Positions 1-9,950 are shown, counted from the first letter of the stretch. The stretch: 9,950 nucleotides of DNA from Candidatus Caldarchaeales archaeon (GCA_032249095.1 JAVVGN010000069.1:1-9950), one strand, 5' to 3'. Translations and numbers: made by a program. The notes: generated from the letters alone by a model not told the origin.

Positions 1-182
1 GGACATATAGTATACCGTTCAAGACCATCCTATCATCAGCCCTAGGCCAACCAACGCTAAACCTAGGAGTAAGAAACGGCCTAATGATCTCCCACCCACC
101 ATCACTAATCACCCTAAACCTCATAATCCACCAAACTCAGAGGAGCCTTGAATAGTTTGGAGACGAGTTCTAGAATAGGCTT
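1..182. other. A/C-skewed, low-GC non-coding tract with no ORF in the track
   Basis: Hand count of 41-160 gives A41 C39 G18 T22. Stops occur in all frames, and the composition differs from the flanking coding DNA. Confidence 0.5.
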
Positions 183-491
183 GTGGATGAACTAGGTGTG
201 GGTGGTAACTTCGTTGCTATGGAGGCTCTGGCCGAGCTGATAACGTACCTAGATCCATCTAAGGGGTTCAGGAAGACAAGCAACCTGTTAGGGCTGTTTA
301 AACCGATTCGCGAGAGAAGGAAGATCTATAGCGGGCACTTGAGGCGTGCTTTGCAGAGGCTGACGGTTTCAGCAAACAACACCGCATCATTTCAACTGAC
401 CGCGAGGATGGAGAAGGAGATCCTCTCAAGAGTCTGGAGGATTTATAGGCAGGAAGCCCTTGGGAGGCTGGCCATGCCGGCGCAGGGATAA
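183..491 (+). CDS. Hypothetical basic protein. Its last 27 codons are encoded by the left inverted repeat, so it may be a fusion or read-through.
   Basis: 102-aa ORF with a GTG start at 183 and an alternative ATG at 219. I recognise no family and see no clear TATA box. The C-terminal MEKEILSRVWRIYRQEALGRLAMPAQG lies inside the repeat. Confidence 0.3.
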   Translation: MDELGVGGNFVAMEALAELITYLDPSKGFRKTSNLLGLFKPIRERRKIYSGHLRRALQRLTVSANNTASFQLTARMEKEILSRVWRIYRQEALGRLAMPAQG

Positions 492-622
492 AGCCCGGAG
501 GCCGGTATGATCCCTCGATTAACGCGCACCCCATTGTCGGGTGCTGTGATGGGTATTTTAACGTCCGGCCTCCTCTAGGGTTTCCCAGATGCCGCACGGA
601 TGGCCAGCCAACCCCCTCCCCC
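414..622. repeat. Inverted repeat, left copy (IR-L). The 209-bp core has degenerate extensions to about 408 and about 650.
   Basis: It is the reverse complement of 2415-2623 with one mismatch (432 G versus 2605, which reads A in the same sense). It was flagged by an identical 54-aa string (RHLGNPRGG...AYKSSR) in the track ORFs 298..639(-) and 2440..2721(+). Confidence 0.95.
466..609 (+). other. Long imperfect hairpin inside IR-L; candidate structured RNA, terminator or insulator module
   Basis: Stems found by hand: 466-475/600-609 (GGCTGGCCAT/ATGGCCAGCC, 10 bp), 497-505/565-573 (GGAGGCCGG/CCGGCCTCC, 9 bp), 526-531/539-544 (GCACCC/GGGTGC, 7-nt loop CATTGTC), plus 485-488/583-586 and 494-496/578-580. 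A C/T-rich tract follows at 610-635. Confidence 0.55.
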
Positions 623-761
623 ACTCTTTCCCCCTTCATGTTTATATGGATGTGAGTTCCGAGGGAGGGTCCTTACCCGTCAATTCCACGAAGAGTTCCC
701 GCGCATAAGTACGCCTCCGACACCCCGCCGAAAGGGCCCTCCAGGGCGAACCGATTGATAG

Positions 762-770
762 ATTTATATG
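762..770 (+). promoter_or_regulatory. TATA box for the 289-aa coiled-coil gene
   Basis: ATTTATATG is centred about 30 nt upstream of the ATG at 797. The same TTTATAT motif recurs upstream of other genes in the window. Confidence 0.55.
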
Positions 771-796
771 CAAATAATGAAGGTTGATACAGAGAG

Positions 797-1666
797 ATGG
801 GGTCAATAATAGGCCGCAGGTCCGAGGAGCTCGAGGCCATTAACATGAACTTGAAGAATATATTGGAGCGGCTTGAGGAGCTCGAGCTTAGACTCTCGGA
901 GGAGGTCCGGAAAAGCGGAGCCGCGGAGTTGGGCGATATTAAGTCTTCGCTTGAAAAGCTTTCCCAGCGGGTCGAGGCCCTAGCCACTACTCAGCCGGAC
1001 TACCTCGTCGACAGGTTCCTCGAGGGAGTCGCAGTCCTTAAGTCACTTGTCTCCTACCTATCGATCTTTCAGGAGCAGCAGACGGAGCTCAGCAGGCTCT
1101 TGGAGTTTCAGAAGGAGCAGGTGGATGTGCTGGAGAGGGCTAGGAACGCGATAATCCGGGAGAGAGAGGAGCTTGAGCAGGAGAGACGGAACCTCGAGAT
1201 ATTGAAGCAGGAGCTGTCATCCCTTAAGGAGAGCGTGGAGGAGAAGGAGGCCGCCCTACGCGGTTTTGAGAGCGAGGTCGCTGCATTGGAGGAGAAGAAG
1301 ACTGAGCTGGAAAACAGCATTAAGGAGCTGAAGGAGACCTATCTGGCCACCCTTCAAGCCGCCTCCCAGCAGATCGATAAGGTTGTGAAGGAGCTCGATA
1401 GAAAGTTCAAGATTAGGGAGGCCCGTCTCGAGAGGCTGGTGAGACTTGAGGAGAGGAAGAGGGAGGAGATAGCCAAGCTTGAATCAGCTAAAACCATGAT
1501 GGAGGAGTATAACAAGCAATTCTCACAACTGGCCGAAGAGGTTAGGCGGCTGGAGCGTAAAAGGTCGCAGCTCCTCCAGGATATCAGTAAGCTTGAGTCG
1601 GAGCGGCGCGAGCTCGAGAGGATTAAGCAGGAGCTCCGAGGAGGGATACTTAGGGGCCTCTCCTAG
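797..1666 (+). CDS. Coiled-coil protein of unknown function, 289 aa
   Basis: ATG start with a TATA box upstream. The sequence is E/L/K/R-rich with heptad character throughout. A short N-terminal coiled coil is followed by a hydrophobic break (about residues 66-95) and then a long uninterrupted coiled coil. There are no NTPase or Cys motifs. Confidence 0.8.
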   Translation: MGSIIGRRSEELEAINMNLKNILERLEELELRLSEEVRKSGAAELGDIKSSLEKLSQRVEALATTQPDYLVDRFLEGVAVLKSLVSYLSIFQEQQTELSRLLEFQKEQVDVLERARNAIIREREELEQERRNLEILKQELSSLKESVEEKEAALRGFESEVAALEEKKTELENSIKELKETYLATLQAASQQIDKVVKELDRKFKIREARLERLVRLEERKREEIAKLESAKTMMEEYNKQFSQLAEEVRRLERKRSQLLQDISKLESERRELERIKQELRGGILRGLS

Positions 1667-2034
1667 TCCCTCTCGAGCTTGACGTATCTCTCAACTATAT
1701 CAGCCATGTAATCTAGTATGCTTAGCCTTTCATTTATCTCGGCAAGAATCTCCTCCATACTGGCAAGCCTAGACTCTAAGCGCGAGATCTCCTCCCTCAG
1801 ATTTGACAGAAGCTCTTTTAACTCAGCGCTCTCGAGTGGATCATGCCTAGAGGCCACTTTCTTCGCCAGGGCCTCTATCTTTTCATCCTGTTCGAGGAGA
1901 CGCGCAGTGATCTTTTCGAGTGCTTTGAAGGTGCTGTCAAACTCGGGGACGCGGCCACGGGGGGTCTCTATAGCGTCAACCACCACCTCTTCCTCTTCCG
2001 CGCCAACGTCCGCCCCCTCTCCTTCCCCACTCAT
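1663..2034 (-). CDS. Small protein with an acidic N-terminus and a coiled coil, 123 aa
   Basis: Its ATG at 2034 overlaps the TGA of the upstream zinc-finger gene (ATGA), which implies translational coupling. Its stop overlaps the stop of the convergent 797..1666 gene within CTAG (1663-1666). Confidence 0.7.
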   Translation of the reverse strand: MSGEGEGADVGAEEEEVVVDAIETPRGRVPEFDSTFKALEKITARLLEQDEKIEALAKKVASRHDPLESAELKELLSNLREEISRLESRLASMEEILAEINERLSILDYMADIVERYVKLERD

Positions 2035-2231
2035 TCGAGCGTCACCTTACACTTAGGGCATACCGCCTTGGTGTTCTTAAGGCTAGTGTAGCAGTCGGGG
2101 TGGAAGTTGGCGCCGCAGTTCTCGCACTTGAGCGGCTCGACGCCCTCCTCGATCTCTAGGAGGCATGCGTCGCACATAGGCTGCCCCCACTCCCAGCGCC
2201 CCAAGACCCGTCCAGCCTTAACCTTGAGCAC
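2031..2231 (-). CDS. Small C4HC3 cross-brace (RING/PHD-like) zinc-finger protein, 66 aa
   Basis: The ligand pattern is C-x2-C-x12-C-x2-C-x4-H-x2-C-x10-C-x2-C (CDAC...CENCGANFHPDC...CPKC). The GTG start at 2231 lies about 26 nt downstream of a TATA box. An internal ATG at 2177 is an alternative start. Confidence 0.7.
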   Translation of the reverse strand: MLKVKAGRVLGRWEWGQPMCDACLLEIEEGVEPLKCENCGANFHPDCYTSLKNTKAVCPKCKVTLE

Positions 2232-2253
2232 AGAGGCCCTACTCGCTTGAGAC

Positions 2254-2261
2254 TATATAAA
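2254..2261 (-). promoter_or_regulatory. TATA box for the zinc-finger / coiled-coil operon
   Basis: The minus strand reads TTTATATA, centred about 26 nt upstream of the GTG at 2231. Confidence 0.55.
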
Positions 2262-2414
2262 GAAATTACTCCACAGCCTGCCGAAGGGCTGGGGCTAGGG
2301 TATTTATCCTGGAGGATGGAGAGACGGGCTTCATGAGGATGCGTCCCAGCCGCCTACACCTGATAGCGATGATATTCCTTACTCCATAGGTATACATGAG
2401 AAAAGGGAGAGAAG

Positions 2415-2623
2415 GGGGGAGGGGGTTGGCTGGCCATCCGTGCGGCATCTGGGAAACCCTAGAGGAGGCCGGACGTTAAAATACCCATCACAGCACCCGA
2501 CAATGGGGTGCGCGTTAATCGAGGGATCATACCGGCCTCCGGGCTTTATCCCTGCGCCGGCATGGCCAGCCTCCCAAGGGCTTCCTGCCTATAAATCCTC
2601 CAGATTCTTGAGAGGATCTCCTT
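2415..2623. repeat. Inverted repeat, right copy (IR-R). The 209-bp core has degenerate extensions to about 2383 and 2626.
   Basis: It is the reverse complement of 414-622. Coordinates map as L + R = 3037. Confidence 0.95.
2428..2571 (-). other. Second copy of the ~144-nt hairpin module, inside IR-R
   Basis: The sequence is identical to 466-609 in reverse complement. The terminal stems are 2428-2437 and 2562-2571. Confidence 0.55.
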
Positions 2624-2642
2624 CATACTGTGTCTTTATCTC

Positions 2643-2909
2643 TTATGGCCTCGCAACTATGTGGAACCTCTCTATCTGCTCCCTCTCTAGGACTATCGAG
2701 TTGAGTGGTGGTGGGTGGTAGATTCTCGGCGGTTTTTCTCCAGCAGTGGCCTCGTATATTAGCCACCTCAGCGTCTTGAGTGAGGGTATCATCCATGTCT
2801 TCAGCCTCCCATCATACTCGTTCTGCACAATAATGATTCCGTCCGGGGTCGGAGTAATGTTCAGAACCCTCTCCACTGCAACCTCGATCCCCGAATCAGT
2901 CACCACCAT
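2643..2909 (-). CDS. Hypothetical protein, 88 aa from the ATG at 2909; the ORF stays open up to a GTG at 2963
   Basis: A TATA box (minus strand CTTTATAT, 2964-2971) abuts the GTG at 2963, so that GTG probably lies upstream of the transcription start site. The ATG at 2909, preceded by GGGGAGAG, is the more plausible start. I recognise no family. Confidence 0.5.
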   Translation of the reverse strand: MVVTDSGIEVAVERVLNITPTPDGIIIVQNEYDGRLKTWMIPSLKTLRWLIYEATAGEKPPRIYHPPPLNSIVLEREQIERFHIVARP

Positions 2910-2963
2910 CTTCTCTCCCCATGTTTTCACCCGTTTCGGAGAAGAACCCCCCACCGGCCCCAC

Positions 2964-2971
2964 ATATAAAG
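2964..2971 (-). promoter_or_regulatory. TATA box for the 2643..2909 gene
   Basis: The minus strand reads CTTTATAT, the same motif as at the other promoters in the window. Confidence 0.4.
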
Positions 2972-3291
2972 AGTAGTGGCCCCAACAATCGGGCCATCAT
3001 CAACATAGACCCACTATACTCAAGAGAACTACTGCCAAGATAAATAAAGACCTCAAAGAGACTAATACTACTAAGAGAAATCTACCACTCACCAACAAAC
3101 ATTAGGGGTTTGGAGAAGGAGATAGGAGTAGTAAAGAAGGAGAAATCTAAACTAAGACACATACTAGGCATAGAACACGGAAACATACCAATACAGTTGG
3201 ATTTGTGGGGTAACGAGGTAATATTCAGGGGGAAGGACAAACAACACTACACGGATATCCAAGACCAGAAAAGAATCCTTAAAAGCTGGGC

Positions 3292-3915
3292 GTGCCGAGA
3301 AGTGTTGTGCAGCAGGGATATTACCTGATTCCTGGCGCAACCACCGTCGGGATAAAGGGTGTTGACGGTGTCGTACTTGGATCTGAAAAGCGTCTATCAT
3401 ACGGTAACTTCGTCGTCTCCAAGAATGCTAGGAAGATCTTCCAACTCACGCCTAACGCGGGCGTGGCGTGTGCGGGGCTCGTGTCGGACATGCAGGACAT
3501 CATTAGGGAGGCAAAGGCCCTCATAAACCTCTACATCATAGAGGAGGGCCGTCTGCCAAAGATAAACACGGTCGCTAAGATAATCTCAAACTATCTGTTC
3601 GGAAGCAGGTTCTTCCCATATTTCACCGAGACAATAGTCGGAGGTGTTGACCCGCTCGGGCCGCACATTTATGTGCTCGACCCTCTCGGCTCCATTATTG
3701 AGGACGAGTTCGCGGCGGTGGGGAGTGGCGCCGAGATAGCTTCCGGCGTTCTTGAGACATGGTATAGGCCTGGGGCAAGTTTGGAGGAGCTGAGGGAGTT
3801 GGCGATCAAGGCCGTTAAGGCCGGTATGGCGAGGGACGCGGCCAGCGGGAACGGGATTGACATCCTCGTTTTAGGCCGTAACAACTATGCGAGGCTGGAG
3901 GCCGTCCCTGTTTAA
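3292..3915 (+). CDS. psmB: 20S proteasome beta-type subunit, with Ala at the position aligned to catalytic Thr1
   Basis: It aligns without gaps to the Thermoplasma and Methanocaldococcus beta subunits as I recall them (G-ATTVGI..., GSG, RDAASGNG). The start is uncertain between GTG 3292 and GTG 3307. A TTAAAA element lies at 3269-3274. Confidence 0.9.
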   Translation: MPRSVVQQGYYLIPGATTVGIKGVDGVVLGSEKRLSYGNFVVSKNARKIFQLTPNAGVACAGLVSDMQDIIREAKALINLYIIEEGRLPKINTVAKIISNYLFGSRFFPYFTETIVGGVDPLGPHIYVLDPLGSIIEDEFAAVGSGAEIASGVLETWYRPGASLEELRELAIKAVKAGMARDAASGNGIDILVLGRNNYARLEAVPV

Positions 3916-3989
3916 TCTCAAACCCGTTTAGCATCTCAGAATCGGGTAAAACTAATGAGGTGGTATAACGCCATAATATTGTAGGTTAG

Positions 3990-4712
3990 ATGAGGCTAAA
4001 CACACTACACATACGGCTTCTAGCCTATTTATATGAGCAGAAGGGCTTCAGCAACAGCGTTCACACAACAACCCCCATTCTCGCCCGATATCTAGGGACC
4101 TCGCAGCAGTCTGTCTCCCGAATTATGATTAATCTCGAGAAGGAGGGCCTGATAGAGAGAAGGATGGTGGGGCGAAGCTGCTTCGTTAGGTTGACCGGCA
4201 AAGGGGTTAACGAGCTGTCCGAGCTTTACACGGAGCTTAAAAGGGTCCTAGATAGGCCCATCGAGGTCGTTCTAAATGGCCGGGTGTTCAGTGGGCTTGG
4301 AGAGGGGGCATACTATATCTCGCTGCCTTGGTATAAGAACCAGATCCGCGAAAAGCTAGGATTCGACCCGTACCCAGGGACCCTCAACATCAACCTACTC
4401 TCGTGGGACGCGATCCAGAACAAGCGCCTCGTATCCAGATACGCGGATATAATAATCGAGGGCTTCAGGGACCAGCATAGAAGTTATGGAGGGGCGCGCG
4501 CCATACTCGCCACATTCAACCAGAGCGACATCTGCGCGATCTTGTTTATCGAGAGAACACATTATGGCGAGAACGTGATAGAGGTGATCTCCCCAGTCTA
4601 TTTGCGCGGAAAGTATGGATTATCAGACGGGGACAGGGTTGAGGTCAAAGTGTCTCTGCCGACCGCCCCTGTAAAGCAGGAAAGCGGCGTGACGACACAG
4701 CAGCGAGAGTAA
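3990..4712 (+). CDS. ribK: CTP-dependent riboflavin kinase fused to an N-terminal winged-helix HTH domain (RbkR-like)
   Basis: The C-terminal domain carries GRVFSGLGEGAYYISLPWYKNQIREKLGFDPYPGTLNINL and VIEVISPVYLRGKYGLSDGD, matching the archaeal RibK (MJ0056) family. The N-terminal ~85 aa looks like a MarR/winged-helix HTH. Confidence 0.85.
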   Translation: MRLNTLHIRLLAYLYEQKGFSNSVHTTTPILARYLGTSQQSVSRIMINLEKEGLIERRMVGRSCFVRLTGKGVNELSELYTELKRVLDRPIEVVLNGRVFSGLGEGAYYISLPWYKNQIREKLGFDPYPGTLNINLLSWDAIQNKRLVSRYADIIIEGFRDQHRSYGGARAILATFNQSDICAILFIERTHYGENVIEVISPVYLRGKYGLSDGDRVEVKVSLPTAPVKQESGVTTQQRE

Positions 4713-4908
4713 GCAGCCCGTTCGCCGACCACTACCCATCAGCTCCGCCAGAATCTAGCAGAAGAATCCGCGCAATATTTCCGCCCTCACTCTCCTACCT
4801 AATGTATCGTTTTCCTTGTAGGATGGTATTGCTTGTGGGTGTAAAGGAGCTGTCGGCCTGTCGGGGGTCGGAATGCTATTTATTGAGGCGGGTTGGACGT
4901 GCTAATTG

Positions 4909-5541
4909 ATGTCTGAAGCCTTCAGTAGGGCTGAGGAGTGGGTTAAGCAGCAGCTCAAGCAGGGGATGGATCTGGCCTCTATCCAAGCTGGATTCCCAGG
5001 CTTCAAAGACGGCGCAATAAGCGTGAATAGGGTGATATCCGTTGACCCGCTCCTCTTGGGCTATTTCGACGAGAAACTCGCACTCAAAATCACTGAGGAT
5101 GTCATCAGGGCTGTATGGAGGGTCGCGAAGCTACATGGGCTGAATGTTTACACTGCGTCCCAAGAAATCCGGATAGTTAAAGACGGGGTCCTTTATGGCG
5201 TAGTAAGGCAAAACGGATTCGCCGCCGGCAAACCCGCCCTCTTCGCGGACCTCGCATCCATGGTTTTTGGGATTGGGGGTGCACCATTGGCTAGGGTACC
5301 TGTTAAGGATAGCTGGCTCGGCTCCTTAGCAACCTTGATATCGGACAGAAAGGTTGTCGAGGCATTGTTTACTGTGATTCTCGTTGTTCTTCTCCCAACA
5401 ACCCTGGCAGCCGCCTCCCTACTGATCACGCCCTCAATATTTCTCCCCGACATAGGCCGCGTCGCCGCGGTCCTGCTCCTACTATTGACCACGATCTATA
5501 TAGCCAAGCGCTACATAGCCGAGAACATTAGGACGAAGTAG
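4909..5541 (+). CDS. Hypothetical membrane-anchored protein: a soluble N-terminal domain followed by two C-terminal TM helices
   Basis: The ATG at 4909 immediately follows the TTG at 4906 used by the track. A TATTTATT TATA box at 4877-4884 lies about 28 nt upstream. Hydrophobic segments are VVEALFTVILVVLLPTTLAAASLLI and AAVLLLLLTTIYIA. Confidence 0.65.
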   Translation: MSEAFSRAEEWVKQQLKQGMDLASIQAGFPGFKDGAISVNRVISVDPLLLGYFDEKLALKITEDVIRAVWRVAKLHGLNVYTASQEIRIVKDGVLYGVVRQNGFAAGKPALFADLASMVFGIGGAPLARVPVKDSWLGSLATLISDRKVVEALFTVILVVLLPTTLAAASLLITPSIFLPDIGRVAAVLLLLLTTIYIAKRYIAENIRTK

Positions 5542-5589
5542 ACGAGCTAGGCGCGCCGTCAGGGACGCTTAGGAAAGGTTGACCATCTC

Positions 5590-6774
5590 CTATTTTGACC
5601 TGTGCTCAGCCACGAGTCTCGTGAGTATCGTCACGGGAGCGTCGGTCTTTATCGAGGAAGGGTCGTAGTGGGTAGCCGAGGCTCTGTAGCCGATCTCGAC
5701 GAGTTTTTCGAGAATCTCACCGGGCCTTGGAGGAGAGGTCTTAGCCCTCCTGGATAACTCGCTGATGGGGTAGGACCAGGGTATGTCTTGGAGTTCTCGG
5801 TCCAGTCTGCGAATCAAACTTAACACCTCACTATATGTGTCGTCGGACGCGAGCTCGGATGTTAGGATCCTCTGGATGATAGCACCGTCGGTCAGGGGCC
5901 CCAGCCAGATTGGACCGAGTGGAACGTTTTCGTGGCCACAGATGGAGCAGCTTCTGCTCCAATCCTCTAGGCGTTCAAGTTTCATGGTGTTGAGGCAGCT
6001 TCTGCAGTGGGCGAGGTGTCCAGTCATCCTTGAGGCTGCGTAGGCTTTGCTTTTGCCGCGCTCAACCCTGAAAAAGACTCTTACGAAGTGCCTGTATGCA
6101 GCTGAGACAACGGGTGTAGCTGCGAGGCCTAGGCGGCTAGAGGCTCTGACGACAACACCTGCGAGTGCCCTTATGGCGACTTCTTTGAAGAAGACGGTCT
6201 TGCTTAGAGTTAGGCCATATCTCCAGTATGCTGTCCTGCGTGAGGATCCCGAGAGTGCGGCCAGGTCTGTTGCCGAGACGCCCAAAAGGCCATTCCTCTC
6301 CGTGGCCCTCAGGGCGGACTCTAGGAACCTGATCGGCGAACCAAAGGGGTCTATATCGACATAACATGCCCTCCCCTCAAGCGCAAGCCGCGCCAACAGT
6401 AAGTTCGCATCACTGTGCTCCACCCTAAGCCTTTCAGAGAGACCATTTAGGCTCGCGTTGATGCGCGAAAGGGCTACAGCCCAGGGATTAATGTCTCCCG
6501 CGACCCCCTCTCGCGCCACATTAGTCTCAAGCAGCAGTCTTACGGCCCGAGCTCCGGCTCCGGCAAGGGGCTCGGCGAAGAAGCGGCAGCCGGCCCCCCT
6601 GAAATAAGCGTTTACCGCCAACACCGCTAAGTCCCTCGAGGCCTTCGAGGCTGGATTATAGAATGCGGGCATCTTGGAGGAGGCTGGCATTTCCTCGAAT
6701 AATGGGACTAAAAGCTTCGCGGCACCCTCAACGACCATCTTAGTCTTGAATGGGATCTCTGAGGGGCCAGACAT
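5590..6774 (-). CDS. trm1: tRNA (guanine26-N2)-dimethyltransferase Trm1
   Basis: Motifs FYNP, DIDPFGSP, SATD and GPIWLGPL are present, plus a C-terminal Cys cluster. The ORF is open to 6846, but the ATG at 6774 lies 4 nt after the upstream gene's stop and avoids a 68-nt overlap. Confidence 0.9.
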   Translation of the reverse strand: MSGPSEIPFKTKMVVEGAAKLLVPLFEEMPASSKMPAFYNPASKASRDLAVLAVNAYFRGAGCRFFAEPLAGAGARAVRLLLETNVAREGVAGDINPWAVALSRINASLNGLSERLRVEHSDANLLLARLALEGRACYVDIDPFGSPIRFLESALRATERNGLLGVSATDLAALSGSSRRTAYWRYGLTLSKTVFFKEVAIRALAGVVVRASSRLGLAATPVVSAAYRHFVRVFFRVERGKSKAYAASRMTGHLAHCRSCLNTMKLERLEDWSRSCSICGHENVPLGPIWLGPLTDGAIIQRILTSELASDDTYSEVLSLIRRLDRELQDIPWSYPISELSRRAKTSPPRPGEILEKLVEIGYRASATHYDPSSIKTDAPVTILTRLVAEHRSK

Positions 6775-6778
6775 CAGT

Positions 6779-7351
6779 TCATCGAGCCTTCCCCAGTAAT
6801 GCGGCAACTCTCTCGGCCGTCCGTATTGCTTCTCCCCTCCTAACAACGATCAGCTCCCCTACCCCTTCTCTCACCGCCATAACCAAGGGATCTTTAGAGT
6901 AGTAGTGGAAAGTTAGGAGAGCCCGCTGAGCCTCGGAGAGGACCCGCCTAACCCTTGACCTAAAGCCATCGCTCAGAAGCTCCATAGGCCCCACCTCGTC
7001 GATCACAACCACCTCGCCCGCTTCAAGCGATCTATCAACGGTATCTGACAGAGCCCTCTCCAAGTTCTCCAAGTACACAACGTAGCGGCCGATCCTAGGC
7101 CCGCCATGCGCCTCAACCCTCGCCAGTGGTGTTACTCGACCGAGTCCGAGCTCGACTATGTCGAAGCCAATCCTGGCCGCCCCCTGCCGCACTTCCCTCG
7201 TCACAAATCCTCCCACAGGAATCCCATCCCTAGAGAGAAGCTCCGCCGCCCTCTGGGCAAGGGTTGTCTTCCCTGAGCCTGGCGGCCCAGTCACCCCCAC
7301 TATGAGGCGTGCTAACCTCCCCTTTACGCGGTTTAACTCCTCGCTCTCCAA
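6779..7351 (-). CDS. THEP1-like P-loop nucleoside triphosphatase (COG1618-type)
   Basis: Walker A is GPPGSGKT and Walker B is VVVIDEVGPME. The size (about 190 aa) fits. The TTG start lies 2 nt after the glyS stop. Confidence 0.8.
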   Translation of the reverse strand: MESEELNRVKGRLARLIVGVTGPPGSGKTTLAQRAAELLSRDGIPVGGFVTREVRQGAARIGFDIVELGLGRVTPLARVEAHGGPRIGRYVVYLENLERALSDTVDRSLEAGEVVVIDEVGPMELLSDGFRSRVRRVLSEAQRALLTFHYYSKDPLVMAVREGVGELIVVRRGEAIRTAERVAALLGKAR

Positions 7352-7353
7352 CC

Positions 7354-8853
7354 CTACATATCTCTATACATGTCCTTGAATATCAAATCCTCTAGATCCC
7401 TGATTGGGACCCTGACCTGCTGGGCTGTGTCCCTATCCCTCACGGTCACGGTGCTATCTTGGAGCGTCTGGTAGTCGATTGTGACGCAGAGGTTTGCTCC
7501 CACCTCATCATACCTTGCGTATCTCCTTCCTATAGATCCACGGCTATCATACACCACGTAAAGGGGGAGCCTGCTGTTCCTCAAAAAACCATAAACTTCA
7601 CGAGCTTTTGTCACGAGCTCCTCCTTATCCATGAGGGGCAGGATAGCGGCCTTTATGGGGGAGATGGGCCTGGGCATCCTAAGGACTGGCCAGTCCCGGG
7701 CCCCCTCGGTATACGCGAACTCAAGAATTGTGTAAAGTATCCTCTCAATGCCGAATGAGGGCTCAACAACGTGGGGCACGACCTTTCTGCCGTCGTAGTC
7801 TACGGTTAGATCCTCGCCCGAATGGGTCGAGTGCACGGTCAAGTCATAGTCGCGTCTATAAGCATTACCCACGATCTCCTTCCAACCGAAGGAGAATCCG
7901 ACCTCCAGGTCGAAGTTGCCGCCGGAATAGTGGGGGGTCTCCTCGGGGAGAAGGTGTCTAAACCTCATACTCTCAGGCGGGATTCCGAGGGACTTGAAGA
8001 ATCTAACCTCCTTCGCGAGGTAGTAGGCTAGGTAGCGGTTAGGCACAATCCCCTCCTCGTAGGCGTCGGTTGCCCTAATCACTATAGGCTCACTCCCACC
8101 CTTCAGCTGCTCCTCCCTAGTCAGGATCCGAATCTCTGTCCCCCCAATCTCTTGAAGTCCTGAGGGGCCTTGATCATCGCCGGGAGGTATGAAGACCTCT
8201 ATTTCCATCTGGCTGAACTCCCTGAGCCTGATGATTGATTGGCGCGGTGATATCTCGTTTCTAAAGGATCTTCCTATCTGCGCCACCGCGAATGGCAGGC
8301 GGGCCCTCATTGCGTAGACTATCCTCTTGAAGCCTATGAAGATGTTTTGGGCTGTCTCGGGCCTCAGAAACGACACCTCCTCGGCTCCGCCCACGGTTAG
8401 CCTGAACATTAGATTGTGAGGCTTTATCTCGGAAAGCTCCCCGCCGCAGTGAGGGCACCTTACTGCGAGCTGAGCCACAAGCGCAGCCAGTTCCTCAATT
8501 TGCTTCCCCTCGACTCTCACGCCCCTCACCTCCTCAATCAGTTGGTCAAGCCTGTAGATTCTCCTGCAGACAGAGCACTCCGCCTTGGGATCCGTGAACT
8601 TATCCGCATGTCCCGAGGCCTTGAGGACGCTGTAGGGGAGTATGAGTGCGCCGTCAATTAGATATACCTCGTATGAGTTTTCGCGTTTCACGAACTCGTC
8701 GATCCAGTAGTTCACCAAGTTCATCTTCATGAGGGCTCCTAACGGCCCGAGGTCATAGAAGCCGGCTGGTCCCCGGTAAATCTCGGCCGTGGGGTAGAAT
8801 ATGCCTCTTCTCAGGGCCAAGCTAGTAACTTTTTCGAATAGGCTCTCCGGCAT
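7354..8853 (-). CDS. glyS: Glycine--tRNA ligase, archaeal/eukaryotic-type class II
   Basis: The protein is full length, with FYDLGPLG, FRNEISPR, the class II motifs and the archaeal CxxC...CxxC insertion. The ATG at 8853 lies about 28 nt from the TATA box; the track's TTG at 8862 is the alternative start. Confidence 0.92.
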   Translation of the reverse strand: MPESLFEKVTSLALRRGIFYPTAEIYRGPAGFYDLGPLGALMKMNLVNYWIDEFVKRENSYEVYLIDGALILPYSVLKASGHADKFTDPKAECSVCRRIYRLDQLIEEVRGVRVEGKQIEELAALVAQLAVRCPHCGGELSEIKPHNLMFRLTVGGAEEVSFLRPETAQNIFIGFKRIVYAMRARLPFAVAQIGRSFRNEISPRQSIIRLREFSQMEIEVFIPPGDDQGPSGLQEIGGTEIRILTREEQLKGGSEPIVIRATDAYEEGIVPNRYLAYYLAKEVRFFKSLGIPPESMRFRHLLPEETPHYSGGNFDLEVGFSFGWKEIVGNAYRRDYDLTVHSTHSGEDLTVDYDGRKVVPHVVEPSFGIERILYTILEFAYTEGARDWPVLRMPRPISPIKAAILPLMDKEELVTKAREVYGFLRNSRLPLYVVYDSRGSIGRRYARYDEVGANLCVTIDYQTLQDSTVTVRDRDTAQQVRVPIRDLEDLIFKDMYRDM

Positions 8854-8876
8854 CTCCCTCAAAAGAAAATACGCGG

Positions 8877-8885
8877 ATAATATAG
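8877..8885 (-). promoter_or_regulatory. TATA box for the glyS / NTPase / trm1 operon
   Basis: The minus strand reads CTATATTAT, centred about 28 nt upstream of the ATG at 8853. Confidence 0.5.
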
Positions 8886-8936
8886 ATGTCTAACCACGGA
8901 GAACCGCATGCCCATCCTCTACGACTCTAAGCGGCT

Positions 8937-9710
8937 TCATGATGTGAGCTCTGCGTTGCAAGATGGGCATCTATTTCCGAGATCTATCCATACATTCATG
9001 CAGTCCCTGTGGAATGTTGCCCCGCACCCCTTACAGGCCGCTAGCTCTCCGCTAGGAATAGTGTCGCCGCATATCAGGCAGTTCCCACCCGTAGGTGCCT
9101 GGCCGCTTGGCTGGCTCGGTATGTGCTGGGCTGTCTCAACCCTCGTTGTCTCCTCCCAGACCTCCGGGACCTGAACCTCCTGCCCCTCAACACCCCCCTC
9201 GCCTGGTCCGCGGGCCAAATCAAGCTCTTGCGTCGCCCACGAAGGAGGCGGCCCTAAATATACAGTGGACTTGGTCCTAATGCTGGCCACCGTCGCTAGA
9301 ACCGCACTCCCGGTGATCGCCACGCCTGTTATGAGGGCTCCGAACATCCCGAACTCCGGTGTATATGAAAGCTGGAAGGAGGGTAGCTTGACTAGGTATG
9401 TGTATAGGGGGGAGAAGAGCGCGAGTCCTGCTGAGGTGAAGGAGAGTGTTGGAAGAACGACTCTTATCTTGGAGATCTCCCTAAGCGAGCTGGAGAGGAT
9501 GCCCGCCACCCCCGCGGTGCCTCCTGCCACGAGAGATATTATGAGGGGCTCGCTGAAGGTGTAGCCTGAGATCAGGCTACGGCCAACGTTATCATAGTTT
9601 ATCGAGAACCAGGTCAAGAGCAGGCTTAGCGAATGGATGGCCCCTAGAAACGATACCATGGCGCCTATCCTGCTGAACCTGGCCAAAGCCTCACTGACCT
9701 GAGTAATCAT
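8937..9710 (-). CDS. Membrane protein with four predicted TM helices, a Pro/Gly/Glu-rich linker and a C-terminal C4HC3 RING/PHD-like zinc finger
   Basis: Four hydrophobic segments occupy the N-terminal ~150 aa. The C-terminus reads CLIC-x11-CKGCGATFHRDC-x10-CPSC. The ATG at 9710 is preferred over the TTG at 9716. An AT-rich TATA region lies about 27 nt upstream. Confidence 0.8.
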   Translation of the reverse strand: MITQVSEALARFSRIGAMVSFLGAIHSLSLLLTWFSINYDNVGRSLISGYTFSEPLIISLVAGGTAGVAGILSSSLREISKIRVVLPTLSFTSAGLALFSPLYTYLVKLPSFQLSYTPEFGMFGALITGVAITGSAVLATVASIRTKSTVYLGPPPSWATQELDLARGPGEGGVEGQEVQVPEVWEETTRVETAQHIPSQPSGQAPTGGNCLICGDTIPSGELAACKGCGATFHRDCMNVWIDLGNRCPSCNAELTS

Positions 9711-9733
9711 AGACAAACCCTATAGCATCTGCG

Positions 9734-9749
9734 CGATATATATTATTAT
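9734..9749 (-). promoter_or_regulatory. AT-rich TATA region upstream of the membrane zinc-finger gene
   Basis: The plus strand reads GATATATATTATTAT, centred about 27-30 nt from the ATG at 9710. Confidence 0.4.
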
Positions 9750-9950
9750 GTTGCCCCAAGCTCTGACCGGGTACTCGAAGGCCGCGACCTCCCGCCCTAA
9801 AGCAGCATCGCCTAGCCCCAGCGCCGCGCCGGAACGAGCCGATCCACTCTCCTCACCTGTTCTTAGTTAGGTCTCAGTCTTTTATAACACTACGCCGAAG
9901 GGGATTAATAAAGAGATTTTGGTCATTTGTTAGTCTGGTCTTGGGTATCC

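Follow-up and report, generated by a model that had tools for sequence, protein, structure and literature searches.

Right Ends of a Predicted IS110-like Insertion Sequence Form the Inverted Repeats Around an Ancestral Three-Gene Cluster in a Caldarchaeales Archaeon

Introduction

In a 9950-bp stretch of DNA from a Candidatus Caldarchaeales archaeon (GCA_032249095.1, JAVVGN010000069.1:1–9950; hereinafter, the window, with positions counted from its first letter), three small genes are enclosed by two almost identical inverted repeats. The question raised by this locus is whether the repeats and the genes make up a mirror-symmetric cassette, as a sequence-only reading of the window had proposed, or whether they were brought together in another way. 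It was found that each arm of the repeat is the last ~210–230 bp (the right end) of a multi-copy insertion sequence (IS) of ~1.6 kb, designated element E. It is considered likely, with a probability of roughly 0.85, that the arms are the right ends of two decayed IS110-like copies lying around an old gene cluster, and that recombination between them flips this cluster.

Results

The Inverted Repeat and Element E

A repeat search of the window revealed an inverted repeat with arms of 234 nt each (413–646 and 2391–2624), which were 96% complementary and 1744 nt apart. Since the second-longest inverted repeat in the window was only 35 nt at 74%, chance is excluded for the 234-nt repeat. According to pairwise alignment, the core at 414–622 is the reverse complement of 2415–2623 with one mismatch (432/2605), and on the inner sides identity falls off with indels across the next ~25–30 bp; the 209-bp repeats, the single mismatch and the inner decay of the sequence-only reading were thus confirmed.

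Full-length E (L150, ~4019–5613) consists of a left end of ~630 bp, an open reading frame (ORF) of 281 aa and a right end of ~150 bp. The window sequence at 171–631 had a nucleotide identity of 83–85% to E copies at two unrelated loci, namely, malate synthase/LUD (L150/L151) and Thi4/RLI (L152–L161), and nothing else was common to them. At least five genomic contexts of E were found: this locus (three fragments), downstream of H+-PPase, malate synthase/LUD, Thi4/RLI, and AlaX/MaoC (L162). Hence, E is multi-copy and mobile at unrelated loci, and it has only short subterminal repeats and no long terminal inverted repeats. The repeat is thus the right end of a dispersed IS, and this is in essence the outcome that the sequence-only reading had named as its own refutation. 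A 22-mer from the arm matched this locus only in Joint Genome Institute (JGI) metagenome contigs (4 contigs) and had no match in viral contigs, in which E itself was also sought and not found. A genome scan with the pattern GGCTGGCCAT N{110,140} ATGGCCAGCC, which is degenerate, gave chance bacterial matches only.

The window is identical in sequence to positions 499–10448 of L004 (JGI contig Ga0209670_100717), onto which E was mapped with nhmmer. E segments fell at window positions 169–610, 2430–2623, 2908–2993, 3021–3268, and from 9936 on. The first corresponds to positions 1173–1616 of E (L004 667–1108), and the next three are the pieces of copy 2 (L004 3121–2928, 3491–3406 and 3766–3519, respectively), the left-end terminus of which, CTGGTCTTGGATATCC, lies at 3253–3268. 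The start of copy 3 was supported by inverted repeat I13 as well as by the nhmmer mapping. The coordinates of the copies and of their parts are collected in Table 1.

The inverted repeat is exactly the stretch of E retained in both copies 1 and 2. The deletion junction of copy 2 sets its outer edge (413/414 and 2624); the inner edge is fuzzy and consists of the variable pyrimidine-rich tail in which the E right end closes, a tail that finishes with TTCATG in the left arm and in L162 and with variants of this motif in the right arm and in L152. Because the outer edge is an internal-deletion junction and not an element end, there is no target-site duplication at this edge, in agreement with the earlier reading, which had found none at the outer ends. 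Its statement that the region has no transposase, however, does not hold: a truncated IS110-like gene (183–491) reaches with its 3′ end into the left arm, and the end of an IS5-like element is found at 1–173. The supposed flanking genes are, on the left, this truncated transposase and, on the right, a 106-aa ORF (2643–2963) inside the left end of E, which was not conserved in other E copies.

The truncated ORF of 102 aa had 157 homologue clusters with identities of 65–100%, mostly on short contigs, and longer versions extended its N-terminus. In L150 (4650–5495), an otherwise complete E, one in-frame stop splits the recombinase into ORFs of 109 and 167 aa. Antisense to the left end of copy 2 (3021–3268), an ORF at 3110–3328 stays open for ~71 codons in four diverged copies (..KEKSK.RHILGI.HGNI.IQLDL.GNEVIFRGK..); its variable sites were distributed over the codon positions as 17/26/28, with no third-position excess, and it is probably a conserved non-coding left-end sequence on a T-poor strand rather than a coding one.

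The Three-Gene Cluster and Its Repeat-Free Relatives

The interior of the repeat contains, as had been described, a 289-aa coiled-coil ORF on the plus strand opposed to zinc-finger and coiled-coil ORFs on the minus strand, with TATA-like boxes at 762–768 and 2253–2259. Coiled-coil matches of the 289-aa and 123-aa ORFs were sub-threshold only, and RING or zinc-finger matches of the 66-aa ORF were near the threshold. No tRNA and no Rfam family at E-value ≤ 1 were found in the whole window. Homologues of the 289-aa protein carry the names Calditenuaceae or Nitrososphaerota.

Relatives were compared at protein identities of 96% (P0001; ten contigs, 10–400 kb), 77% (L125), 64% (L126 of strain HR02, and L129) and 41% (L130). 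In those at 96, 77 and 64%, the same three genes lie between the gene of a 257-aa RING-finger protein and rpl15e, and the intergenic regions of the cluster measure only ~110–140 bp and contain neither the repeat nor an IS. In the relative at 41%, the three genes adjoin the RING-finger gene, likewise without repeats, and a different gene follows. Relative to the empty site of L140, the breakpoints of the window are at 705 and 2308, and they carry ATA (3 bp) and ATTTATC (7 bp), each present on both sides of the inserted DNA. The collinearity with L140 indicates that the three genes and their TATA-like boxes are ancestral, whereas the repeats are a lineage-specific addition. Thus, the repeat-free relatives represent empty sites, and the comparison with relatives that the sequence-only reading had recommended speaks against its mirror-symmetric cassette, the cluster being present without repeats in all relatives examined.

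An ancient palindromic duplication was considered and rejected, since the two coiled-coil proteins have only a weak coiled-coil similarity (E-value = 0.014) and no similarity was found between the two flanking ORFs. In the ancestral layout, the region is bracketed by two RING-finger proteins, a soluble one of 66 aa (2031–2231) and one of 257–259 aa with predicted membrane segments (8937–9716); Calditenuaceae-like genomes have kept the neighbourhood of RING-257, coiled-coil, coiled-coil and RING-66, and L130, the most distant relative, has a ThiS-like gene close to it.

Two Orientations of the Segment and Haplotypes of the Arms

Independent assembled contigs contain the 1.9-kb segment both ways round relative to the same flanks, in agreement with the earlier suggestion that the repeats permit inversion. 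Orientation A, with the 289-aa gene beside copy 1, was found in the window, in L004/L145 and, from another sample, in L134. Orientation B, with this gene beside copy 2, was found in L001, L002, L003, L005, L006, L131, L132 and L146, the last of which was 99.8–99.9% identical to the window across the flanks and the cluster. In orientation B, the ancestral polarity relative to rpl15e is kept and the two copies of ATTTATC remain a direct pair; therefore, B is the older state. The single-nucleotide polymorphism (SNP) at 432 travels with the outer flank, and the differences at the inner edge travel with the cluster, which places the exchanges within 433–622.

Two arm haplotypes, alpha and beta, differed at ~17 positions clustered in 486–535. 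Both arms were of type alpha in the window, L146 and L134 and of type beta in L005 and L006, whereas the pair in L001–L003 was mixed (beta/alpha, 90% identical). Such a distribution across strains means that the near-perfect identity of the arms in the window is a product of conversion and not of recent duplication; among the causes named by the sequence-only reading (duplication, conversion or selection), conversion is thus the one that was supported, and recent duplication has to be abandoned.

The Protein of Element E

The family of the intact protein comprised 866 matches with a modal length of 281 aa, mostly on contigs of 1–3 kb, and it is abundant in hot-spring Caldarchaeales. No match to Pfam, NCBIfam or PHROG was found for it, and a sequence search of PDB with the 281-aa protein and its profile gave only coiled-coil noise. 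Profiles PF01548 (RuvC-like DEDD domain) and PF02371 had no match at E-value ≤ 10 to the window ORF, its long versions, the concatenated 281-aa protein or 48 family members.

An AlphaFold (AF2) model built from 48 homologues had a predicted local distance difference test (pLDDT) score of 86.6 and a predicted template modelling (pTM) score of 0.79. In a Foldseek comparison of the model with PDB, the top 13 matches were all IS621 (8wt6/8wt9), ISCro4 (9t56) or TasR of TIGR (9mty), with a probability of 1.00, E-values of 3 × 10−6 to 7 × 10−5 and template modelling (TM) scores of 0.56–0.63; the next match had an E-value of 0.027. A profile search run exhaustively over 1.84 billion representatives returned only 183 clusters at 50% identity. 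The distant full-length members among them (21–29% identity) have the consensus KSDENDA, a motif of the IS110 type K-T/S-D-x-x-D-A, and DEDD_Tnp_IS110 was the sole Pfam family matched by more than one of them (5 of 27, best E-value = 0.0098, sub-threshold). Residues D6, D48 and D93 are invariant or nearly so in the family alignment. In the E subfamily, the corresponding motif is K[TS]ARGD, the first Asp having been lost, and the candidate catalytic Ser (motif YSG) is present in most members and replaced by D or G in several, which form a subclade; for these reasons, activity is not assured for all members of the family. Taken together, the modelled fold and the motifs indicate that E is a divergent IS110-like insertion sequence missed by current profiles.

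The Right-End Hairpin

The right end of E folds into a long hairpin (Table 1). The 144-nt core at 466–609 had a minimum free energy of −76.9 kcal/mol, and the 233-nt arm at 414–646 folded at −100.2 kcal/mol (z-score −3.4). The reading frame has a conserved end (..GRLAMPAQG*), which forms the 5′ strand of the hairpin, and in every other E copy found the hairpin stands directly after the 281-aa gene. In L162, it was kept although the left end is unrelated.

Five types of right-end sequence were compared (alpha, beta, L150, L152 and L162). The hairpin scaffold, comprising stems 497–505/565–573 and 526–531/539–544 with the flanking motifs, was 87–92% identical between copies, whereas the identity of the coding sequence was 67–83%. 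The identity of two blocks, V1 and V2, was 11–56%. V1 comprises the 7 nt after UAUGAY and was present in five versions (CCCTCGA, TGAGGAT, GGACGTC, TGCCCAT and GGCACTA), and V2 comprises 5–12 nt after GGGUGC. None of the 51 predicted pairs had a compensatory double change. Comparison by eye of V1 and V2 with the flanks or the element ends in the five types, two or three of them with both flanks, revealed no consistent complementarity. The termini of the right and left ends co-vary (CTGGTC/CTGGCC in the window type and CTGTCC/CTGTCC in L150).

According to sequence and folding, the hairpin is a candidate, unproven, for an IS1111-style guide (bridge) RNA; alternatively, it may be a recombinase-binding DNA hairpin or a subterminal repeat. 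The search for other RNA classes was negative. Rfam gave only a chance match to PVT1_3 for the right ends of L150, L152 and L162, and none of the C/D box, H/ACA, kink-turn (K-turn) and bulge-helix-bulge motifs fitted 466–609 in tests by hand. A box C/D small RNA (sRNA) was rejected, as there was no Rfam match at E-value ≤ 1 and AUGAU and GUGAUG were present without CUGA; the motif on the 3′ side in L162 is AGCGACA.

In L162, five direct repeats of ~29 nt (CCATTCACTGCTCGCGGCAGGTTTGGTGA), each with a small hairpin and spaced by 32–61 nt, were found at 2128–2332. They lie upstream, by ~170–250 bp, of an IS110-like family member that is 66% identical and has an otherwise unrelated left end, and they could be a stem-loop repeat array.

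Discussion

Proposed History of the Locus and Its Alternatives

The host is a hot-spring archaeon of Caldarchaeales ("Aigarchaeota", Calditenuaceae-like). In this lineage only, copies of E would have landed in or beside the two intergenic regions flanking the old three-gene cluster, opposite in orientation and with the right ends inward; copy 1 would later have been truncated by the IS5-like insertion, and copy 2 would have lost its middle by deletion. Homologous recombination between the right ends would invert the 1.9-kb segment, hence both orientations in nature, and the near-identity of the arms in some strains would come from gene conversion, either between them or with other E copies as donors. 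Of the possible mechanisms, ordinary homologous recombination of the IS fragments with each other is the most likely. Since the promoters lie inside the flipped segment and both junctions have the same sequence, the inversion is expected to be functionally neutral, and we infer that it is a by-product of IS invasion and not a switch.

Several observations weigh against this history. The E right ends are separated from ancestral sequence by 58 and 82 bp of unexplained DNA, and the breakpoint duplications of 7 bp (ATTTATC) and 3 bp (ATA) are not accounted for by current knowledge of insertion of the IS110 type. Host recombination would not be separable by sequence alone from recombination encoded by the element. 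Moreover, orientation A was found only in strains with arms identical over 209 bp, so the inversion polymorphism depends on assemblers having resolved a repeat longer than the k-mer, and contigs L147 and L148 stop exactly at the inner edge of the repeat (window 2415).

The last two points, together with the break of L149 inside the repeat (window 2504), speak for the alternative that only one orientation is real and the other an assembly artefact, the interior having been placed arbitrarily because the repeat exceeds the k-mer or read length; a de Bruijn graph allows either traversal of a segment flanked by inverted repeats. Assembly does suffer at this repeat. For the repeat-bearing lineage, 55 of 83 index blocks (found with the 289-aa protein of the window) held only contigs shorter than 2 kb, the longest contig being 26 kb, whereas in the repeat-free sister lineage (P0001) this was so in none of 33 blocks and contigs reached 403 kb; this contrast shows how strongly the E family fragments assemblies. 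Nevertheless, assemblers normally break at such places rather than guess, orientation A recurs (in the 18-kb JGI contig, in two further similar places and in L134 from another sample), and the contigs of orientations A and B have private SNPs and so belong to different strains. An artefact is therefore regarded as rather unlikely.

The inversion might instead be site-specific, with the IS110-like, possibly RNA-guided, recombinase of E catalysing it at the two right ends. Insertion, excision and inversion of DNA are all possible for IS110 recombinases equipped with bridge RNAs (PMC11208160), intact 281-aa members exist in the same communities, and both arms have a complete right end with the conserved hairpin. 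This explanation is nonetheless improbable: the functional recombinase gene has been lost from both copies, which would require an enzyme supplied in trans; IS110 pairs a donor, i.e., the junction of right and left ends, with a target, not two right ends; an identity of 209 bp is ample for homologous recombination; and the crossover interval narrows only to 433–622.

It is highly improbable that the segment is a programmed switch (phase variation), its orientation controlling the expression of the three genes. A small segment between inverted repeats, found both ways round in near-clonal genomes, would suit such a device, but there is no invertase gene nearby and no recombinase apart from the IS remnants, the promoters at 762–768 and 2253–2259 are ancestral and inside the segment, the junction sequence is the same either way, and the repeats are IS debris absent from all relatives that keep the genes. 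Equally hard to credit is a duplicated host small-RNA gene or a miniature inverted-repeat transposable element (MITE) unrelated to the transposase: despite the stable 144-nt hairpin with a TATA-like TTTATAG before it and a pyrimidine/T tract after it, there is no Rfam or tRNA match, the 5′ strand of the hairpin is the end of the transposase frame, the hairpin directly follows the 281-aa gene in other copies, and the TATA-like motif coincides with conserved codons (RIYRQ). A MITE is further rejected because the repeat has its outer edge within the transposase gene or at the junction of a deletion and its termini differ from the terminal repeat of the neighbouring IS5-like element.

The cassette interpretation was only partly right, and the most plausible account of the locus is that of IS debris around an ancestral cluster, in which recombination between the shared right ends produces a neutral inversion polymorphism and concerted evolution of the arms. 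The case shows that a pair of decayed IS copies can be mistaken for a designed mirror cassette and that such repeats fragment metagenome assemblies. Its main value lies in the unannotated IS110-like recombinase family and in a 3′ hairpin that is conserved above the coding level and contains hypervariable blocks.

Neighbouring Elements and Unassigned Stretches

The IS5-like element measures ~810 bp (L001 12053–12862), and its ORFs on L001/L004 match PF13340 and PF01609. The terminal repeat, GAACTCGTCTCCAAACT, is found at L001 12053–12069 and 12846–12862 (window 154–170), and the homology to E begins at window 169–171, abutting it. On the far side of the element, only 32 bp, which do not belong to E, precede the ancestral upstream region of rpl15e.

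A second pair of inverted repeats, ~560–640 bp long and ~84% identical, is formed by the left-end parts of E copies 2 and 3 (2632–3268 and 9935–9950, the latter continuing as L004 10434–10991). It flanks the block from proteasome beta to RING-257, which is inverted relative to all relatives. Beside copy 3, there are 191 bp (L004 10241–10431) that match neither E nor the empty-site relative; these and the unassigned stretches of 58 and 82 bp (Table 1) may be pieces of a repeated target sequence.

Table 1. Positions of the features discussed, numbered along the window.
Feature	Position	Strand	Remarks
IS5-like insertion sequence, end	1–173	−	DUF4096 and DDE_Tnp_1 ORFs; rest lies left of the window; inserted into E copy 1
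E copy 1	171–643	+	3′ ~470 bp of E (E ~1173–1616 and tail); upstream part cut off by the IS5-like element
ORF102	183–491	+	C-terminal 102 aa of the 281-aa recombinase; last 26 codons (414–491) within the repeat
Left repeat arm	414–646	+	Portion of E common to copies 1 and 2: transposase gene end, right-end hairpin, pyrimidine tail
Right-end hairpin	466–609	+	Candidate guide/bridge RNA or recombinase-binding element; stems 466–482/593–609, 497–505/565–573, 526–531/539–544
Hypervariable blocks of the hairpin	V1 512–518; V2 552–556 (extended V2 545–556)	+	From comparison of E copies
Pyrimidine-rich tail of the E right end	610–643	+	Ends ..CTTCATG; more variable between copies; shared with right ends of L152 and L162
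58-bp stretch	647–704		Between E right end and ancestral DNA; matches neither E nor the empty-site relative
Ancestral three-gene cluster with its own promoters	705–2308		~95% identical to and collinear with repeat-free L140 3908–5513
289-aa coiled-coil ORF	797–1666	+	ORF calls
123-aa coiled-coil ORF	1663–2034	−	ORF calls
66-aa RING-like zinc-finger ORF	2031–2231	−	ORF calls
82-bp stretch	2309–2390		Between ancestral DNA and the right end of copy 2; matches neither E nor the empty-site relative
Right repeat arm	2391–2624	−	Right end of E copy 2; hairpin 2428–2571, V1 2519–2525, V2 2481–2485
E copy 2	2391–3268	−	Internally deleted; left-end part 2632–3268 (E ~14–640) fused to the right end (E 1418–1613)
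Block between left-end parts of copies 2 and 3 (3269–9934)	Ancestral part 3292–9742 (~6.5 kb)		Proteasome beta to RING-257; inverted versus ancestral order
E copy 3	9935–9950	+	First bases only; left end and 5′ two-thirds of the transposase gene run on as L004 10434–11693

Comparison with Known Systems

Homologous recombination between inverted IS copies or long inverted repeats leads to a flip-flop of the segments that they bound, and inversion between IS copies is a known, ordinary phenomenon. This locus shares with such systems the opposite-facing copies of a mobile element, the presence of both orientations in the population and the concerted evolution of the arms. Unlike the usual inverted IS pairs, copy 1 is truncated and copy 2 internally deleted, and only ~210–230 bp are still shared, which is why the repeat pair looked like a stand-alone structure.

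The modelled E protein has the same fold as the proteins of the IS110 family, IS1111 group (IS621, ISCro4 and IS4321/IS5075), which are DEDD recombinases guided by bridge or seek RNAs, namely, a RuvC-like domain, a coiled coil and a C-terminal Tnp/Nop-like domain, according to Foldseek. Residues D6, D48 and D93 are conserved in E and the KSDENDA motif is found in its distant members, and E, like IS110 elements, is multi-copy and devoid of long terminal inverted repeats. Its candidate subterminal repeats are CTGGTC..ATCCGTG at the left end and CTGGCC ATCCGTG on the complement of the right end, with CTGTCC at both ends in L150. In the IS1111 group, a structured non-coding element directly follows the gene, as in E, and the bridge RNAs combine a conserved scaffold with hypervariable loop segments, a pattern that the E hairpin resembles (PMC11208160). 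Meanwhile, the identity of the E protein to IS621 is only 12–16%; unlike IS110 proteins, it is short (281 aa), matches neither PF01548 nor PF02371, lacks the first D of KTDxxDA and has D or G in place of the YSG Ser in some members. The left end of E is also long (~630 bp), and, unlike in a two-loop bridge RNA, the two variable blocks of its candidate RNA share a single large internal loop. On the basis of the model, E is a new, unannotated variant of the IS110 type with a candidate 3′ guide RNA.

TasR of TIGR-Tas is among the top fold matches of the E protein (E-value = 3.7 × 10−5), and a topology of tandem spacers has been described for IS110, TIGR and C/D guides (PMC12045711). Similarly, the loop of the E hairpin has two tandem variable blocks between conserved motifs, with stems on both sides. 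In contrast to TIGR-Tas, E is a multi-copy mobile element and not an array-associated effector; in contrast to box C/D small ribonucleoproteins, its hairpin has no CUGA D box, no drawable K-turn and no Rfam C/D match; and structures of Nop5 were not among the top 50 fold matches of the E protein. As a tentative and rather doubtful proposal, E may be an archaeal, thermophilic and compact (281-aa) branch of the IS110/TasR/Nop5 proteins, the partner RNA of which would be a single-loop hairpin with tandem spacers and box-C-like RUGAU motifs. In that case, the hairpin would have a form intermediate between the two-loop bridge RNAs and C/D-type guides, both arms in the window would be copies of a guide-RNA gene, and the difference between alpha and beta in V1 (CCCTCGA versus TGAGGAT) would be a re-programmed spacer. 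The compact E clade would then be relevant to an open question (bioRxiv 10.1101/2024.06.21.599552), namely, whether the origin of Nop5 lies in an IS110-like lineage of archaea that current databases lack. More generally, if the hairpin is a guide RNA, E would be a compact bridge-recombinase system of thermophilic archaea and would inform the evolutionary link that has been proposed to connect IS110, TIGR-Tas and C/D small nucleolar ribonucleoproteins.

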